Notes under the pieces: generated by a model
Database searches by the model: none
The model's input: the letters and a program-made list of their open reading frames with translations, nothing else
What the model was told of the DNA's origin: nothing
DNA from: an uncultured Gammaproteobacteria bacterium
GTDB taxonomy: Bacteria; Pseudomonadota; Gammaproteobacteria; SZUA-229
Direction: 5' to 3'
Assembly (NCBI GenBank): GCA_965602855.1
Contig: CBFCZV010000002.1
Coordinates: 25,659 to 89,658, forward strand
DNA: 64,000 nt
Program-made: the position numbers and the translations under genes
In this document: positions 12,713 through 19,924 of the stretch, piece by piece
Position numbering within the stretch: position 1 is the first letter of the stretch
How the letters are laid out: every line of letters begins with the position of its first letter

Positions 12713-13207
12713 GTGTATAAGAATATGAGACTAGCTCAGTATACCTTCCTTTTGTTGATGCTAACTTTTAGCCATATCAGCCTTGCGGCCGTTCAGGACG
12801 CGCCTTCGATCAAGCTGCCGACGGCCGATGGTCAGGTAGATCTGGCTACACTGAAGGGCAAAGTGGTTTATCTTGATTTCTGGGCATCCTGGTGTGAGCC
12901 GTGCAAGAAATCATTTCCCTGGATGCATAAGATGAAAAAGACTTATCAGGATAAAGGTTTCGAAGTGCTGGCGATTAGCCTTGATAAGGAAAGAAAACTG
13001 GCGGATGCATTTCTAAAAGGCATGGATATTAATTTTGTGGTTGCTTTTGATGATGCGGGGAATACCGCCAAAGAATATAAACTGCGCGGTATGCCGAGCA
13101 GTTACCTGATTGGACGTGATGGCAAACTCTATGCATCACATATTGGTTTTCGTGAGAAAGACAAAGCGAAAATGGAAAAAGCGATTAAGCAATTGTTAGC
13201 GCAGTAG
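12713..13207 (+). CDS. TlpA/ResA-like periplasmic thiol:disulfide oxidoreductase
   Basis: 164 aa; signal peptide; thioredoxin fold with WASWCEPCKK (CxxC). Confidence 0.8.
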   Translation: MYKNMRLAQYTFLLLMLTFSHISLAAVQDAPSIKLPTADGQVDLATLKGKVVYLDFWASWCEPCKKSFPWMHKMKKTYQDKGFEVLAISLDKERKLADAFLKGMDINFVVAFDDAGNTAKEYKLRGMPSSYLIGRDGKLYASHIGFREKDKAKMEKAIKQLLAQ

Positions 13208-13222
13208 TCACGGCAATAACCA

Positions 13223-13459
13223 TTGATTTTGATTATGAGGAGTATTATGAAACGCACAGCAACAATTATTTTATTAATGGCGCTTGCAGGTTGTTCCAGC
13301 ATGGGCGTAGAACCATGGGAGCGCGATCTGCTAGCCAAAGATTCGATGCAATTATCGCCTGATTATTTCGATAATTTTTACGATGAGCACATTTATTTCA
13401 GTAAAGAGGCCTCCAGTGGTGGTCAGGGCGTCGGCGGCGGAGGTTGCGGATGCAATTAA
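13223..13459 (+). CDS. DUF4266-type small lipoprotein
   Basis: 78 aa; lipobox LAGCSS; C-terminal GGGGCGCN tail that I recall as characteristic of DUF4266. Confidence 0.65.
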   Translation: MILIMRSIMKRTATIILLMALAGCSSMGVEPWERDLLAKDSMQLSPDYFDNFYDEHIYFSKEASSGGQGVGGGGCGCN

Positions 13460-14742
13460 AGAAGATAAAAGGCCAGATGGCCGTAGCGACCTGTGCCCTG
13501 TTACAGGTTGCCTCACCCGCTGTTAATGCAGTGGAAGCCGAAACTGAATGGGATGTTGATACCGCATTTCTTTATTACAGTGAAGCAGATGGTCGGGTGT
13601 CCGCATTTGAACCTGCCATCTATGCAGGTCGTGATCTGGGTGATGATGAGCGAGTAGATTTTCGAGTTGTTTTCGATGCCCTGACAGGTGCAACGCCCAA
13701 TGGTGGTTACGCAACTTCAGCACCACAAACCTTTACCACGCCATCAGGTGACAGTTCATACACCACACCTGCGGGAGAATCGCCACTGGATGATACCTTT
13801 AGAGATGCGCGTGTTTCTCTGGGTGCCGACTGGACCATGTCACTGGATCGTATGTCCAGAGTGGTATGGGGTGCGAATCTTTCTGGAGAGATCGATTATA
13901 TTTCCATGGGTGTGACTGCTGCTTATTCTCAGGACTTTAATAATCGAAACACCACGCTAACGACCAGTTTTGGTTTTAATAACGATATGATTAATCCCCA
14001 GGGCGGCACCCCCATTGAGTTTGCGCCAATGCGTGCCGCAAATACGGGCACTAACAGAGATGGTGACAGTGAAACAAAAACCATCACTGACTTTATGATT
14101 GGCGTTACTCAGGTGGTGAGTCGCAAGACACTTATTCAATTGAATATATCGTTAGGCATGGTTGATGGTTACCAGAATGATCCCTATAAGATTTTGACAG
14201 TATCAAATGCTGCAGGTGATCCTATAACCTCATTTTTGACAGCTAATGATTTATCTTATGTTTATGAAAAAAGACCTGACTCACGCCAGAAAAATGTTAT
14301 GTTCTTCAAGGCCGTGCATCATCTAGAAGAAGATGTCATTAACTTCTCGTACCGTTATTACTCAGATGACTGGGGCATTAAATCGCACACACTGGATTGG
14401 AAATATCGTTATGAGCTGGCTAACAGTTATTTGCAGCCACACGTGCGCTACTACACACAGGACGCTGCTGATTTCTATAGTCACAGTCTGGTGCTAGGGA
14501 CTGATATTGATACCGCCGGTAATGCGCTGGTTGATTATGCCAGCAATGATTACCGACTGGCCGAATTGGATACAGTCACACTGGGTCTTAAATATGGCAT
14601 GCTCATGGGCAATGATAGCGAGTTCTCCGTGCGCGGTGAGATCATTTCCCAGTCCGTGAATGACAGTGGTGTGCCTGCTGGTCAGGAAACCCCTGATTTG
14701 GATGCACTGATGTTTCAGGTTAACTATTCTTTCTTGTGGTGA
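13444..14742 (+). CDS. DUF3570-like secreted protein (predicted outer-membrane beta-barrel)
   Basis: 432 aa; signal peptide; alternating-hydrophobic beta-strand character; C-terminal ...YSF(L)W; overlaps the upstream gene. Confidence 0.6.
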   Translation: MRMQLKKIKGQMAVATCALLQVASPAVNAVEAETEWDVDTAFLYYSEADGRVSAFEPAIYAGRDLGDDERVDFRVVFDALTGATPNGGYATSAPQTFTTPSGDSSYTTPAGESPLDDTFRDARVSLGADWTMSLDRMSRVVWGANLSGEIDYISMGVTAAYSQDFNNRNTTLTTSFGFNNDMINPQGGTPIEFAPMRAANTGTNRDGDSETKTITDFMIGVTQVVSRKTLIQLNISLGMVDGYQNDPYKILTVSNAAGDPITSFLTANDLSYVYEKRPDSRQKNVMFFKAVHHLEEDVINFSYRYYSDDWGIKSHTLDWKYRYELANSYLQPHVRYYTQDAADFYSHSLVLGTDIDTAGNALVDYASNDYRLAELDTVTLGLKYGMLMGNDSEFSVRGEIISQSVNDSGVPAGQETPDLDALMFQVNYSFLW

Positions 14743-14796
14743 TAATTGATTATGACGAAACAGGGATTGTTTCTGACATGCTGATCAATTAAGTTT

Positions 14797-14825
14797 AGGG
14801 CTTCTATAAAGAAGCCCTTTTTTTT
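14797..14825 (+). terminator. rho-independent terminator-like hairpin
   Basis: AGGGCTTCT-ATAA-AGAAGCCCT stem-loop followed by T8; it directly abuts the annotated ApbE ATG, which therefore has no SD. Confidence 0.5.
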
Positions 14826-15722
14826 ATGAAAAATTTAAAATCAAAAAATCTAAAGCTGAAACGGGAAGCCGATTACTGGCAGGGCTCATTCTCAGCCATG
14901 GCCAGTCCCTGTGAAGTGCTCATGGAAGTCAAAGACAAGACACTGGCTGCCCGTATCCTCGAGGCGGTAGCTGATGAAGCAAAGCGCATAGAGAAAAAAT
15001 TCAGTCGTTATCGTGATGATAATATTATTCATAAAATAAATAATGCAAAAGGCTCGCCGGTTTCAATCGACGATGAAACAGCAAGGTTGATCGATTTTTC
15101 GTGCCAGCTCCACCAGATGTCCGAAGGCCTGTTTGATATCACCTCCGGTGTACTCAGAAAAGTCTGGAAGTTTGATGGCAGTGATAACGTGCCGGAGTTT
15201 TTAGCGGTGGCCGCTATGCTGGAGAAGATTGGCTGGTCAAAGGTGCAATGGAAATACCAAACGGTAACCATGCCCGAAGGCATGGAAATTGATCTCGGCG
15301 GTGTCGGTAAAGAATACGCCGTTGATTGCTGTGTACAAATAGCACGTTCTTTAACCGATGAAAGCGTGCTGGTTAATTTTGGTGGTGATCTGGCCACCAC
15401 CGGCGAACGCCGAAACAAAAACTGCTGGTCAGTCGGCCGGTTGGTCACCGGCAAGGAAAATGCAGTTGCTCTGTTTAAACTATCCCGTGGTGCCATCGCC
15501 ACCAGTGGTGATGCACATCGTTATTTATTGAAAGATGGTGTGCGTTACAGTCATGTGCTCAATCCTAAAACAGGCTGGTCGGTACCCGATGCACCGCATA
15601 CGGTGAGTGTGGCAGCACCTACCTGTGTTGAAGCGGGGATGATGTCTACATTGGCGATGTTGCAGGGGGAGAAGGCGAGGGAGTTTTTGGGGTTGCAGGA
15701 AGTGGATTTTTGGGTGGATTAG
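14826..15722 (+). CDS. apbE: FAD:protein FMN transferase (ApbE family)
   Basis: 298 aa; F-AM(A/G) N-terminal motif region; ApbE-like C-terminus; no obvious signal peptide and no SD upstream, so the start is uncertain. Confidence 0.7.
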   Translation: MKNLKSKNLKLKREADYWQGSFSAMASPCEVLMEVKDKTLAARILEAVADEAKRIEKKFSRYRDDNIIHKINNAKGSPVSIDDETARLIDFSCQLHQMSEGLFDITSGVLRKVWKFDGSDNVPEFLAVAAMLEKIGWSKVQWKYQTVTMPEGMEIDLGGVGKEYAVDCCVQIARSLTDESVLVNFGGDLATTGERRNKNCWSVGRLVTGKENAVALFKLSRGAIATSGDAHRYLLKDGVRYSHVLNPKTGWSVPDAPHTVSVAAPTCVEAGMMSTLAMLQGEKAREFLGLQEVDFWVD

Positions 15723-15814
15723 GTTTCTGTCGCTAAACAACCTCCGTCATCCCGGTATGTTTTTTAGCCGGGATCCATGTTTGGGAATTTGTAGTAATTC
15801 ATAACTTTGGTGGA

Positions 15815-15832
15815 GTGGGTATTCGCACCCAC
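15815..15832. repeat. REP-like inverted repeat GTGGGTATTCGCACCCAC
   Basis: Perfect hairpin followed by GGGCG; a related element GTGCGAATTCATTCGCAC-GGCGC sits at 45881-45898. Confidence 0.4.
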
Positions 15833-16285
15833 GGGCGAGGCACTTTTTATATTCCGCACATCCATGTGCTCCACCCTACGGGCCGTGTATAAAACACACG
15901 TTTAAATCTGATCCAGTCAGATTTATCTACAGTAAGAAAAAGTACCCAAAAAGTGCCGCCCCAAACAACCTGCCTCAGATTCCAACTTTGCCTACGCGTC
16001 GGCCTGACTCGCAATCCCGCTCGCAGGCCTTGATTTGCCGTCCATGGCAAATTAACCCTACCAAAGCCAAAAGCCTCGGCAAACTGATAGGGGATGGAAA
16101 AACTAAAAACGCTTTTTTATATGGTGCAACGCTCTGCGTTTATTGACTCCTGCGTGCTGGTATATATAAGAAACCTCAATAGCGCGCAATAAAGCGCATC
16201 GAGATAAAAATAGAGATAAAAGGTTGCGCTAAAATATAATAACTGCTATCGTTTACGAAACGTAGTAAATGACAGAGGAAGAATT

Positions 16286-17077
16286 ATGTCTGTGCAAATT
16301 AAAAAAAGAGCAGCACGAAGCCCGAATTACCCAATACAGCCCTTAGAGTGGGCTGTTAGCAATGCTCTTCAACTCCTTGATAAAGAAGGCTTACATGCTG
16401 TGCCGCCAGACATAGTAGCGCGAAATTTAGGATACAAAAACGCTAGTAATGGCAAGGCTGGTCGAGTTTTAGCGAATTTAAAAGCGTTTGGTGTAATTGA
16501 GAAGGCTTCTTCTGGAAAATTAGCTGTCAGCCAAGATGTGCAGCGTTACAAGTTAGCTCCTACAGATAGCGATAGAAAAAGCTATTTAAAACAATGGCTT
16601 AAAACGCCTCTGCTCTACAGTAAGATCATGGGAAAGTATGAAAACGACTTGCCTTCTGATGCTGTGTTGTTATTCGAGTTAGTAGATGAGCATGGCTTTA
16701 ATGAAGATGCTGCTGAAAAAGCTATAAAGGTTTTTCGTGAATCTATCGATTTTGTTAAAAGAGCTACAAATGGTTTAGATAATGAAAGCAGTGAACAAGT
16801 GCCTGAAGGGGATGATTTTGCAACGGATGCAGGCATAGAAGTGCAGCAAATGACTGCACAGAGCAGCACAACTGCTACAGGTGTGGTGCATGAGCGGACT
16901 AAAAAAGCACCACCGCAAACGAATACTGATAATTTTAGATACCCAATTAGACTTGCTGGTGGGCGAATAGCTTGGATCGAGGTGCCAGTGCCCTTTTATG
17001 AGGCTGATAAAAACAAATTAAAAGCACAAATCGAAATTATAGGTACAGATGATGAAGATGGTGACATTAGTATGTAA
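16286..17077 (+). CDS. hypothetical protein in the AT-rich islet
   Basis: 263 aa; no recognisable motif; low GC compared with the flanks. Confidence 0.45.
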   Translation: MSVQIKKRAARSPNYPIQPLEWAVSNALQLLDKEGLHAVPPDIVARNLGYKNASNGKAGRVLANLKAFGVIEKASSGKLAVSQDVQRYKLAPTDSDRKSYLKQWLKTPLLYSKIMGKYENDLPSDAVLLFELVDEHGFNEDAAEKAIKVFRESIDFVKRATNGLDNESSEQVPEGDDFATDAGIEVQQMTAQSSTTATGVVHERTKKAPPQTNTDNFRYPIRLAGGRIAWIEVPVPFYEADKNKLKAQIEIIGTDDEDGDISM

Positions 17078-17230
17078 CGCTAAAACAAAAACACCCGCAT
17101 AAGCGGGTGTTTAGGGGAATGGAAGTCCACTCCTATGTAGCTGACACTTAATAGCATAGTGGATTCCCCTTTTTGAAGCAAATGATTTTCAGTGCTTCCC
17201 TGAAAATCAATTTTTTAGAAAGGTGACTTT

Positions 17231-17389
17231 ATGTCAAAAGTAAACCGCAGCAATGCTGTGTCAAAAAAAAGCTCAAATAAATCTAAAGGATATATTTTCT
17301 GTAGATTTAGGCGGGTGAAAAATAGTAATAGATACCTAGATGCTCATGACTATGGTTATGAAGCTTGGCGAATACCTATAGGTAAATAA
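17231..17389 (+). CDS. small basic hypothetical protein (52 aa)
   Basis: MSKVNRSNAVSKKSSNKSKGYIFCRFRRVKNSNRYLDAHDYGYEAWRIPIGK; good SD (AAAGGTGA) 5 nt upstream; followed by a hairpin plus T-run at 17396-17432; too short to appear in the ORF track. Confidence 0.3.
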   Translation: MSKVNRSNAVSKKSSNKSKGYIFCRFRRVKNSNRYLDAHDYGYEAWRIPIGK

Positions 17390-17395
17390 CTATGA

Positions 17396-17432
17396 CGCTC
17401 GACTCTTTAATGGGTCGGGCGTTTTTTTATAA
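17396..17432 (+). terminator. rho-independent terminator
   Basis: ACGCTCGAC...GTCGGGCGT stem with one mismatch, followed by TTTTTTT. Confidence 0.45.
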
Positions 17433-17508
17433 AGCCAAGCTCGTAGGGTGTGGTAAGGCACGAACCGCATCACTCGCGTAATCTAATCCGCGCCAAAACC
17501 CCAACAAT

Positions 17509-17835
17509 TTAAGCCACCTTAGTCTTCGTAGAAATCGCTTTAGCCAAATCCTTCTGCGAAGCCCCCAACGCGAGCAATGACTTAATAAGAAGATCAATAG
17601 AAACCGAAGCTGATCCCGTTTCCATTTTTGCGACTCTTGACTGGCTTGATTTAATTAATTTTGCAAAGGCGGTTTGACTTAAATGTTTGCGCTGGCGCAT
17701 TTCTTTCAGGCTTTGGGACAGGGACATTTTCATTTCTATAAATGCCTCTTCTTCTGGTGTTAGCTCAAGAAAGTCAGCGGCTGTTCCAATTTTCCAGCCT
17801 TTGGTTTCCAGTTGTTTACGTTTAGTCTGTTTCAT
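17509..17835 (-). CDS. higA: HigA-type antitoxin (XRE-family HTH)
   Basis: 108 aa; HTH RQRKHLSQTAFAKLIKSSQSRVAKMETG; start overlaps the toxin stop (GATAATGAA). Confidence 0.7.
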   Translation of the reverse strand: MKQTKRKQLETKGWKIGTAADFLELTPEEEAFIEMKMSLSQSLKEMRQRKHLSQTAFAKLIKSSQSRVAKMETGSASVSIDLLIKSLLALGASQKDLAKAISTKTKVA

Positions 17836-18160
17836 TATCGTAATCTCTTAATCTAGCTTTGCAGATATCAATGACAATTTTGGGCGTTTTGCTTGTTTTC
17901 TTTTCAAACACTTCAAGAATCACGACTGCATCTTCATCTGTTCTGTATACAATTCGCTAGGTCACGTTGTTATCTGTAATTCGAAGTTCATGACATCGTC
18001 TTCCAATCGTTGGCATTGGCCGTGATTGCGGCATACTTAATTTTTCACCAATCTGCAATCTCCTTAGTAAAAAACCAGCTTCAATGCGGGCAGAGGAGGA
18101 AAATGGTGGTGTTTTCACTTCACCATGAAGCCATACAACTACCTTGTCTTTTGTGTCCAT
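17822..18160 (-). pseudogene. higB: HigB-type (Gp49-like) toxin interrupted by an in-frame TAG
   Basis: The 67-codon ORF ends at a TAG at 17957-17959 on the minus strand. The same frame then continues as RIVYRTDEDAVVILEVFEKKTSKTPKIVIDICKARL...* ending at 17822; this resembles the ILLHGFxKKTQKTP motif I recall for Gp49-like HigB toxins. Confidence 0.6.
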
Positions 18161-18336
18161 GTTGAAAATAATATGTCATATGTGACATATTGTCAATAAG
18201 GGTTATTGGGCCGTCCGAGCATGGTTGGTATGTAGTTTTTAATTTGCCCGCCGTAATTTATTCCTGTAAAACACTATAAAAATGTAAACAAGGCAGTACC
18301 TCATCAAAGGATAGGCACCCAGGGATCGTTCCAGCT

Positions 18337-19080
18337 ATGGATAAAGCAAGAAAACTATACACAAATAAAAAGTGGTATGACTTTTCTGACAAGGTAAAAC
18401 AAAGAGACGGCCATAAATGCCTGCGCTGCAAAAGAGGGGAGTCTGAAGTGGTTCTCCAGGTGCATCATGAAATATATGTAAAAGATAAACCGCCATGGGA
18501 GTATTCGCTGAGTGATTGCAGAACTTTGTGCAAGGGCTGTCATGCAAGAGGGCATAAGCTAATTGCACCTGATCGGGGCTGGACTTTAATTTTGATTGAA
18601 GATCTGGGTGGGGCAGATGGTATTTGTGAACGGGAAAATTGTGGGCATGAGATAAGATATGCGCATGTAACTTATCACCCTGGCTGGGGTTATAAAGTCG
18701 TTGGTAGTACCTGTGTTCAACATCTAACCAAAAAAGACAGATTGCTAAGCAGTCATATTATTACCCTGTATAAAAACATTAGTAAATTTGTTCATGGTTC
18801 AGACTGGGAAAATAGTTTCACTAAAAAAGGAAAGAAATATTTAACCTGTAAATACAAGCATCATTCAATAAGAATATATGGTGAAGAAAATAACTATTCT
18901 TACCAGCTTGTTTTGAAAGAAAAAGGAATACGCTGGCATGAATTTCGAGACATCATTCCTGCCAGGAATATGAGCCTGGAGGAAGTAAAAGAATTGTCTT
19001 ATATCGTGCTGAAAGGAACGGTCAGTAAGAACGAAGAAGAAAAGTCGTTATTGAGAGATGTATACAGAAAAATAAAATAA
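18337..19080 (+). CDS. HNH endonuclease with an uncharacterised C-terminal domain
   Basis: 247 aa; N-terminal HNH motif HKCLRC...VHHEIY...CKGCH; low-GC gene. Confidence 0.7.
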   Translation: MDKARKLYTNKKWYDFSDKVKQRDGHKCLRCKRGESEVVLQVHHEIYVKDKPPWEYSLSDCRTLCKGCHARGHKLIAPDRGWTLILIEDLGGADGICERENCGHEIRYAHVTYHPGWGYKVVGSTCVQHLTKKDRLLSSHIITLYKNISKFVHGSDWENSFTKKGKKYLTCKYKHHSIRIYGEENNYSYQLVLKEKGIRWHEFRDIIPARNMSLEEVKELSYIVLKGTVSKNEEEKSLLRDVYRKIK

Positions 19081-19087
19081 CACAGAT

Positions 19088-19923
19088 TTATTGTAGCGAA
19101 GCCCTTATCGCATCAATCACAGATTTAGTCTCTGGCTGAACACCCCGCCATAAATTAAACGATTCCGCCGCCTGCTCAACTAGCATTCCCAAACCATCAA
19201 ACACTTTTGCTGCACCGTGCTGACTTGCCCATTCCATGAATACCGTCGGTTTGGCTGTGTACATCATGTCGTAAGCACAGGCGTTGTCTTTAAATAATGC
19301 GTCGGGTAAAGGTGGCAGGTCGCCTTGAAGGCTAGCGGAGGTGCCGTTGATGACAATATCAAATGACTGGCCTTCGAGTGCATCAAAACCACAGCCTGAA
19401 ATATTGCCCAGATCAGAAAAATCTTCGGCCAGTTGCAGGGCTTTTTCTACTGTGCGGTTGGCAATCACTAGCTGCACAGGATTTTTTTCCATGATGGGTT
19501 CAATGACACCACGAACCGCGCCGCCTGCGCCCAAAATTAAAATCTTTTTTTGTTTTAATGCTATTTGATGGTTGTTGCTAAGATCGCGAACCAGTCCGAT
19601 GCCATCAGTGTTTTCGCCAAAATAACTGCCATCATCTTTTTTGATAATAGTGTTTACCGCACCGGCTCTTTCGGCGCGTGAGCTTCTTTTGGCAGCCAGT
19701 TGCCAGGCCTGTTGTTTGAATGGCACGGTGATGTTAATGCCTTTGCCATTGTTGGCAACAAAGGTGTTAACGTCTTTTTCAAAATTATCCACATCCGAAA
19801 GTTCAGCGGTGTAAATCAGTATCTGTCCGGTTTGTTGTGCGAACAGGGTGTGAATCTGGGGTGATTTACTGTGGCTGATCGGGTTGCCGAAAACGGCATA
19901 ACGATCAATGGTTGTTTCGGACA

Positions 19924-19924
<1 letters not shown>
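19088..19924 (-). CDS. aroE: shikimate dehydrogenase
   Basis: 278 aa; YAVFGNPISHSKSP N-terminus; GAGGA NADP-binding motif. Confidence 0.9.

Follow-up and report, generated by a model that had tools for sequence, protein, structure and literature searches.

Leaders in which an RNA helix covers the Shine–Dalgarno (SD) sequence of a downstream gene are known from hok and tisB and from ribosomal-protein leaders, and tight translational occlusion of tiny genes is a property of type I toxin mRNAs. In AbiE, a winged-helix antitoxin is combined with a nucleotidyltransferase toxin (PMC3985639). We investigated an accessory islet at positions 15723–19087 of a 64-kb window (the whole stretch of 64,000 nt that was analysed, from an uncultured gammaproteobacterium) and found in it a 1.2-kb cassette, 16201–17423, which consists of a conserved promoter with GAGTTAAA-type repeats, a gene for a 263-aa protein, an RNA element of ~145 nt, a gene for a 52-aa protein, and a terminator. 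Like the leaders above, the RNA is predicted to be a structured 5′ leader with a helix over the SD, here of a very short open reading frame (ORF), and it is more conserved than the coding sequence. Unlike hok and tisB, the cassette has no detected antisense RNA gene, its small protein is basic and hydrophilic and not a membrane peptide, and its leader has a conserved pseudoknot, follows a winged-helix gene with which it is predicted to be co-transcribed, and has no match in Rfam. Small genes that are controlled by a structured leader and a DNA-binding regulator are of a kind already known; here the arrangement is built from a protein family without a model, an RNA that is not in Rfam, and a phage family of uncharacterised small proteins. 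We consider it moderately probable that the islet is to be read as a mosaic in which the cassette represents a small effector that is locked at the level of translation and governed by a winged-helix protein.

The islet is a mosaic of four independent accessory parts in a permissive slot between the convergent stop codons of apbE and aroE. The four parts are an HNH endonuclease gene, a cluster of hairpins like repetitive extragenic palindromes (REP), a decayed higBA pair, and the cassette, the last being the only intact part of an uncharacterised kind. The slot and the parts other than the cassette are as follows:

14826–15722, plus strand: apbE, core flank and left border of the slot (Pfam ApbE, E 3e-61), syntenic in 26 related loci
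15723–16200, no strand assigned: non-coding cluster of REP-like hairpins (units, e.g., at 15745–15778, 15811–15828, and 15873–15927)
17509–17835, minus strand: higA-type antitoxin gene (108 aa) with an XRE helix-turn-helix (Pfam HTH_3, E 3e-10; HTH_31; HTH_37)
17820–18160, minus strand: higB-type toxin pseudogene (Gp49/HigB) with an in-frame TAG at 17957–17959
18168–18196, minus strand: putative higBA promoter, TTGACA, 17 nt, TATTAT (11/12 promoter match), overlapping a palindrome at ~18170–18191
18337–19080, plus strand: solitary HNH endonuclease gene (247 aa), an HNH/Cys4 domain at residues ~10–75 and a conserved C-terminal region
19088–19924, minus strand: aroE, core flank and right border of the slot (Pfam shikimate dehydrogenase domains)

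To follow the slot among relatives, species-representative genomes were scanned with ApbE, which gave 26 loci, and the window proteins were then mapped onto them. The slot is empty in L004 (ApbE 82% identity), where the two stop codons lie 4–7 nt apart, and empty of genes in L020 (70%). It holds the HNH gene alone in L001 (92%) and L002 (90%), and the HNH gene straight after apbE in L005 (79%), where the contig stops inside the HNH gene; in L003 (80%) it holds other cargo, an HxlR-type regulator and a truncated globin. This bears out the description of the islet as accessory in an earlier note, which had been made from the letters alone. Alignments against the relatives bound a window-specific insertion at ~15727–18317, from which the HNH gene is excluded, since L001, L002, and L005 share its position; the islet is therefore not the single segment that the same note had taken it for. 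The HNH gene is the oldest layer, already present in the common ancestor of the source genome and several relatives. The islet as such is ordinary: unrelated accessory genes accumulate between convergent core genes, and adjacency is a poor guide to function. Its GC content was also as the note described, lower than that of its flanks (40.6% against 45.1% in the whole window), and is the minimum among windows of the same size (mean 44.9, SD 1.7; lowest 1%). A check against the ORF list of the islet and its flanks found all the ORFs in place.

The features of the cassette are as follows, the helices of the RNA being labelled P1 to P4:

16201–16252, plus strand: cassette promoter, with two GAGATAAAA repeats (16201–16209 and 16213–16221), −35 TTGCGC (16224–16229), a 17-nt spacer, and −10 TATCGT (16247–16252)
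16286–17077, plus strand: gene for the 263-aa protein, with an N-terminal RSPNYP tail, a winged-helix plus helical domain (residues 10–165), a disordered acidic linker (165–212), and a C-terminal beta-beta-alpha motif (216–252)
17086–17230, plus strand: structured RNA leader, ~145 nt, with P1, P2, P3, the pseudoknot, and P4
17089–17098/17103–17112, plus strand: P1, a hairpin
17113–17120/17163–17170, plus strand: P2, a long bipartite stem GGGGAAU...AUUCCCC, with an inner helix CCACU...AGUGG at 17127–17131/17158–17162
17184–17192/17201–17209, plus strand: P3, a hairpin with a variable stem and a conserved loop GCUUCCC
17121–17126 (GGAAGU) with 17194–17199 (GCUUCC), plus strand: pseudoknot, in which the internal loop of P2 (GGGAAGC) is complementary to the loop of P3
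17168–17178 with 17213–17223, plus strand: P4, covering the SD of the small ORF at 17220–17226
17231–17389, plus strand: gene for the 52-aa basic protein, motif GYIFCRYRRVKNSxRYLDAHxYGYxAWRIPI
17394–17423, plus strand: intrinsic terminator at the end of the cassette, a 12-bp stem with 7 G-C pairs and a T7 tail

The limits of the cassette are seen in the closest relative, L120 and L121, in which the 263-aa protein is 85% identical. These loci share 16201–17389 alone with the window, the homology beginning exactly at 16201, while their flanks are unrelated and the terminator is different and their own. That the shared part begins just upstream of the promoter and ends with the small ORF's stop codon, between unrelated flanks, marks it as a discrete cassette, and it is self-contained and widely dispersed: the gene for the 263-aa protein and the small ORF occur as a pair in Pusillimonas, Pseudomonas chengduensis, and metagenomic loci. 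In every locus laid out as in the window (type A), the homologue of the 52-aa protein is encoded 150–175 nt downstream of the 263-aa homologue and on the same strand. The partners of the 263-aa gene are thus the 52-aa gene and the intervening structured RNA, and not the HNH gene. Comparison of the type-A loci with upstream sequence showed that a promoter layout of −35 TTGCG[CT], 17 nt, and a TATAGT-like −10 is common to L120, L034, L035, L031, L039, L027, L029, and L038. Words like (G/A)AGTTAAA precede the type-A promoters and are iterated in about half of them, but are not evident in L035 and L038.

The small ORF had been described as a basic ORF of 52 codons with a good SD and a terminator of its own, and it has both (SD AAGGTGA; 12-bp stem at 17394–17423). 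Between the window and L120 its codons differ by 15 synonymous and 7 nonsynonymous changes, with one nonsynonymous change in the conserved C-terminal 32 codons. Judged by this excess of synonymous changes, and by the near absence of others from the C-terminal half, the ORF is a real coding gene. Its product matches phrog_33859, a phage protein family (E 1e-8). The small ORF is rarely annotated, and the cassette, a conserved unit of three parts, is mostly missed by gene callers. In Pseudomonas chengduensis (L029:11167–11319; L030), a small basic ORF of a second type, named type C below, lies directly behind the type-A small ORF, which means that two different small basic genes can stack behind one 263-aa homologue.

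The spacer between the two genes is more conserved than the genes. Its DNA is 74–84% identical in loci whose proteins are 52–62% identical, and in the comparison with L120 it reaches 95.2% identity, against 86.0 and 84.9% for the coding regions. P1 to P3 were derived with RNAalifold and a covariance model built on nine sequences; this model picked out one more example, the tenth and an independent one, in L103 (53 bits), where protein identity falls to 32%. In the alignment of the ten sequences, 94.5% of the cells are paired, compensatory changes occur in 19 of the 37 pairs, and none of 500 shuffles did as well; a shift of the partners by one to three columns reduced pairing to 40–51%. G-U pairs outnumber A-C combinations (24 vs. 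9), which identifies the plus strand as the strand that folds. The complementarity of the pseudoknot is present in all ten sequences, with compensatory changes in L035 and L103 (0/2000 loop shuffles as good). Furthermore, immediately 3′ of P2 there is a CCUUCAAAG-like segment that pairs with the SD region of the small ORF in 11/11 sequences, through 4–11 contiguous pairs (0/2000 shuffles), and the SD of the window is predicted to be unpaired with a probability of 0.05. Rfam 15 had no plus-strand match to 17086–17230 at E ≤ 1, and none in 12 related loci. We take the RNA (RNA-A below) to be a previously undescribed pseudoknotted motif. A match to rsmX on the opposite strand (24.6 bits vs. a gathering score of 56) was taken as chance, and a minus-strand RNA is disfavoured by the same count of G-U and A-C combinations.

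The 263-aa protein had been reported to have no recognisable family, and this proved correct for Pfam, NCBIfam, PHROG, and PADLOC. AlphaFold models its winged-helix and helical domain with confidence (residues 10–165, predicted local distance difference test (pLDDT) ~90), followed by the acidic disordered linker and the beta-beta-alpha motif; a fold search returned a generic winged helix only, and profiles of both protein families, searched against the sequences in the PDB, gave nothing useful. We found 51 homologues, all unnamed, 50 of them near full length with 38–85% identity, in which the N-terminal RSPNYP tail and a C-terminal motif RYPIRLAGGR...IIGT are near-invariant. A profile search of 1.84 billion representatives returned 5,453 clusters of the family at E ≤ 1e-3, and none of ten distant, longer members that were scanned had a Pfam match. 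The loci described here give a first genomic handle on this very large uncharacterised family, including a link to the PADLOC candidate PDC-M21.

That link comes from the neighbourhoods of the 263-aa homologues, 83 loci of which fall into three mutually exclusive layouts. Layout A has RNA-A and the type-A small ORF, as in the window. Layout B/C has another conserved spacer (AUCUCCC-hairpin-GGGAGGCCGG...CCGGUGUCAAG) followed by tiny basic ORFs, of type B (phrog_33859) or type C (phrog_21154). This spacer is a second candidate motif, RNA-BC, which we found in 12 loci (including L050:1298–1470, L051:6769–6919, and L080:6778–6935) between distant 263-aa homologues and the type B/C ORFs; 19 of its 26 predicted pairs are compensatory, and it has no match in Rfam. 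There are thus two candidate RNA motifs with good covariation that Rfam lacks. In the third layout (46 loci, e.g., L033:4593–5836), the relatives of the 263-aa protein (33–43% identity) have no RNA or small ORF downstream and adjoin a divergent pair that matches PDC-M21A (E 2e-36) and PDC-M21B (E 1e-60, weakly AbiEii-like). The gene of the 263-aa family may be an unrecognised third component of the PDC-M21 candidate system, on which a literature search found no paper. The likeness to AbiE is that AbiEi, too, has an N-terminal winged helix and that relatives of the 263-aa protein stand divergent to PDC-M21A/B; the differences are that the window has no nucleotidyltransferase gene and that the 263-aa protein matches neither the AbiEi nor the PDC-M21A models.

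On the mechanism of the cassette, we infer that the winged-helix 263-aa protein binds the GAGATAAAA repeats and controls the sigma-70 promoter. The RNA would act as the 5′ leader of the small gene, in which P4, braced by P3 and the pseudoknot, would hide the ribosome-binding site, and the small protein would be made only once the fold had been opened by a protein, by RNA processing, or by another signal. The 52-aa protein may be a nucleic-acid-binding effector of mobile elements, as suggested by its membership in a phage family and by the integrase genes that it often adjoins.

Several observations weigh against this mechanism or against the history proposed for the islet. The predicted accessibility of the SD varies among relatives from 0.05 to 0.65. 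The pairing of the CU-rich segment with the SD is partly expected from composition, to which the shuffle control is only a partial answer. P4 overlaps the last 1–3 pairs of P2, so that P4 and P2 may be alternatives, and the RNA could be a separate small RNA, or a binding site for one of the two proteins, and not a simple SD lock. On Alteromonas plasmids the small ORF is found with neither the RNA nor the 263-aa gene. Finally, the entry route of the 2.6-kb block is unexplained, as the block has no integrase, repeats, or attC sites. With respect to the plasmids, a lone 48-aa homologue (WP_203229274.1) is encoded on Alteromonas macleodii plasmid pAM1A3 (L117:4968–5114), and there are nine Alteromonas plasmids of this kind; the small ORF is the only part of the islet with DNA similarity to plasmids, and the islet has none to phages.

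The alternation of RNA-bearing layouts with an AbiE-like pair, together with the tight translational lock, suggests a toxin or abortive-infection effector. The cassette would then be a toxin–antitoxin or abortive-infection module, in which the small protein is a toxin silenced by the leader and the winged-helix protein is an antitoxin, sensor, or regulator; this refines our preferred reading, and we think it possible but doubtful. The translational occlusion of a tiny gene recalls the type I toxin mRNAs, the RNA-A, RNA-BC, and M21 layouts exclude each other as if effector modules were interchangeable, and a second toxin–antitoxin pair (higBA) adjoins the cassette in the window. Against this, neither the 263-aa nor the 52-aa protein has a PADLOC match, most type I toxins differ from the small protein, which is basic and hydrophilic, neither an antisense promoter nor repeats were detected, and the linkage to PDC-M21 could be plain neighbourhood in related soil bacteria. 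An extension of the same idea would make the 263-aa family the shared regulator or sensor in a new class of small modules for defence or addiction, the effectors of which could be exchanged (either an AbiE-like nucleotidyltransferase pair or a tiny basic protein gated by a dedicated pseudoknotted RNA, with two unrelated motifs, A and BC, in this role and neither of them in Rfam); this is speculative and on present evidence unlikely. A type III toxin–antitoxin system was considered separately and discarded, since 15600–19200 has no tandem repeats.

The position of the small ORF beside integrases suggests instead an excision or regulatory factor. We hold it to be tentatively possible that the 2.6-kb block of hairpins, cassette, and higBA is one end, now decayed, of a prophage or integrative element whose integrase has been lost, with the cassette as a regulatory or excision-control module, e.g., a directionality factor and the protein that regulates it. 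The association with mobile elements, on which our preferred reading also draws, is seen in L027, L036, and L038, which have an integrase ~350 nt downstream and in which, as in E. coli prophages, the small ORF directly adjoins the 3′ end of a tyrosine integrase gene; in L080, a tRNA gene lies 880 nt upstream. Among the members of phrog_33859 that we found, the best is a 49-aa unannotated ORF in E. coli lambdoid prophages (E 1.5e-26), located between genes for an XRE repressor and an ImmA/IrrE protease on one side and the 3′ end of the integrase gene on the other (L122:1357–3782; L123, ECONIH4 4998–5000 kb). The repressor and protease, classic switches of mobile elements, there stand in for the 263-aa gene. 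Excisionases are typically small basic proteins encoded next to int, and the small protein recalls them; the proteins of this family are, however, shorter than known excisionases (32–57 aa) and have no helix-turn-helix match. In L029 and L031 there is no integrase within 10 kb, and the 263-aa family has no homologue in 50,697 phage genomes.

The islet itself offers no trace of such an element. The earlier note's observation that it has no integrase or tRNA stands: no integrase was found in the ORF list and no tRNA in the 64-kb window, and blastx of the islet against the neighbour ORFs of 83 related loci revealed no remnant of integrases or of other neighbour genes. There are no att-like direct repeats at the islet borders, merely short ones at chance level. 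Many integrative elements and prophages, some of them in E. coli, share a recurrent feature at their integrase end, which would find an explanation if the small protein turned out to be a gated toxin or an excision factor. In the E. coli prophages, the 49-aa ORF is preceded by a spacer of ~155 nt that opens with a P1-like hairpin, and matching DNA is present in 13 of 5,426 complete E. coli genomes. The combination of higBA with palindromes is also reminiscent of Vibrio superintegrons; an integron cassette array (CALIN, a cluster of attC sites lacking an integrase) was rejected after a heuristic scan of 15601–19200 returned no candidate attC-like site (RYYYAAC...GTTRRRY).

It is very unlikely that the element between the two genes works as DNA, as a recombination site, a single-strand origin, or a protein-binding site, and not as an RNA leader. 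Hairpins with G-T pairs are also possible in single-stranded DNA, the element occurs in mobile contexts near integrases, and P1 makes a better terminator on the minus strand than on the plus strand. The helices, the loop–loop pseudoknot, and the pairing with the SD right upstream of the start codon nevertheless fit an mRNA leader, the excess of G-U pairs is on the coding strand, and the element is always found between two co-oriented genes within one promoter–terminator unit.

The earlier note's proposal of a joint defence or addiction module of the 263-aa protein and the HNH nuclease, with higBA as its defence-island companion, is hardly credible, for although the two genes are adjacent in a low-GC segment and the HNH protein has a weak ZorE-like match (E 5e-4), none of the 83 loci with a 263-aa homologue has the HNH gene, none of the six loci that carry the HNH gene alone has the 263-aa gene, relatives hold the HNH gene alone at the same site, a convergent and decayed toxin–antitoxin pair separates the two genes in the window, and the ZorE match is restricted to the generic HNH motif. 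The PADLOC-DB 2.0 models likewise recognised no known defence system among the islet proteins and returned only a generic helix-turn-helix, the weak ZorE match, and a weak match to NsnC.

The HNH gene has instead the marks of a putative free-standing endonuclease of the homing type, with which its solitary state, its horizontal spread, and its exact placement between two conserved genes are consistent. The note was right to call it an HNH endonuclease with an uncharacterised C-terminal domain. Its beta-beta-alpha-metal motif is intact (His-His and two CxxC pairs, with the catalytic His and the CxxC invariant among homologues), although the Pfam HNH match of the 247-aa protein is weak, and its PADLOC matches, which include DpdF besides ZorE, are confined to the same generic motif. 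The C-terminal region has invariant residues (C97, C102, C126, H110, and H114); its 167 aa have no Pfam match, and the ~170 aa match nothing in sequence or fold, the fold search hitting the HNH core alone even with a confident AlphaFold model (pLDDT 86). We found 206 homologues, and the best 120 of the 206 are nearly all full length (227–274 aa) and 57–89% identical. They span distant bacteria (Methylobacter, Sedimenticola, Contendobacter, a Desulfobacterota metagenome-assembled genome, Picosynechococcus, and Thalassolituus), and such similarity across distant phyla points to horizontal spread; three more contexts of the gene that were examined have no neighbours in common. Within the clade, its identity is in step with that of the flanking genes (92% in L001, 89% in L002, and 76% in L005, where ApbE is 79% identical), which is consistent with vertical descent there. 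In its presence in the window, L001, L002, and L005 and absence from L004 and L020 at one precise site, the gene resembles free-standing HNH homing endonucleases, which are solitary, inserted precisely into spacers of a few nt, variably present among relatives, and horizontally spread. It departs from them in diverging with its neighbours inside the clade and in a C-terminal region that matches no known DNA-binding module.

The higBA pair is like type II HigBA systems in its toxin-first order, its 16-nt overlap, the palindrome at its promoter, and the family matches of both genes, and to this extent the identification of a higB–higA pair in the note holds. It differs from them in the toxin frame, which is intact in HigBA and is here broken by a TAG at codon 68, where a Trp codon is expected (context NNVT*RIVYR in translation). 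When the TAG is read as Trp, higB matches Pfam Gp49 (PF05973) with 46.8 bits (cut-off 23.9) and phrog_2523 (E 1e-16). The same stop is present in L118 and L119, independent assemblies from other samples that are 99.97–100% identical to the window, and its recurrence in three independent assemblies indicates that the mutation is real. Because of this nonsense mutation we regard the pair as decayed, and probably only an orphan antitoxin or repressor now remains. The palindrome is a self-complementary 22-mer and is likely to be the higBA operator.

The cluster at 15723–16200 folds better than shuffles (fold z −3.7) and contains a long inverted repeat (15834–15848/15948–15962). The opening of the islet had been described as part of an AT-rich segment and as a non-coding stretch with REP-like palindromes. 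The second part of this stands, as the stretch is rich in hairpins and no ORF in 15723–16285 has a family match; the first does not, as the cluster has 46.9% GC and the leading non-coding part is therefore not AT-rich. Three of the hairpin units are also present in L007, where they lie at an unrelated location, in permuted order and with compensatory changes in the stems (ATCCCGG/CCGGGAT to ATTCCGG/CCGGAAT, and AAATCTGA/TCAGATTT to AAATTCGA/TCGAATTT), and one unit is found again in L003, likewise between apbE and aroE. This recurrence, with reordering and compensated stems, supports a REP-like nature, and the units are typical of the source lineage. Short hairpin units clustered between convergent genes, with related units elsewhere in relatives, shuffled in order and compensated in their stems, are also what is seen in REP and bacterial interspersed mosaic element (BIME) palindromes. 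Those have many dispersed copies per genome; within the 64-kb window the units here have no second copy, and related units are present in L003 and L007. A match to the Rfam family TwoAYGGAY at 15950–16102 on the minus strand (27.4 bits vs. a gathering score of 43; one hairpin loop is AUGGAC) is below threshold and probably a chance match within the cluster. Pseudogene remnants were also considered for the non-coding parts and rejected, the blastx comparison being negative and two ORFs there having no Pfam match.

Upstream of the islet, a conserved cluster at 12713–15722 ends with apbE and also encodes a TlpA-like thioredoxin, a DUF4266 lipoprotein (78 aa), and a DUF3570 outer-membrane protein (432 aa), the two DUF labels being Pfam labels taken from the identical contig L118. 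In L020, the gene-free spacer between apbE and aroE contains a near-perfect palindrome of ~140 nt (L020:10868–11009, CCACAGAGGCACAGAGAACAC...), which may serve as a terminator in both directions or belong to a further REP-type element.

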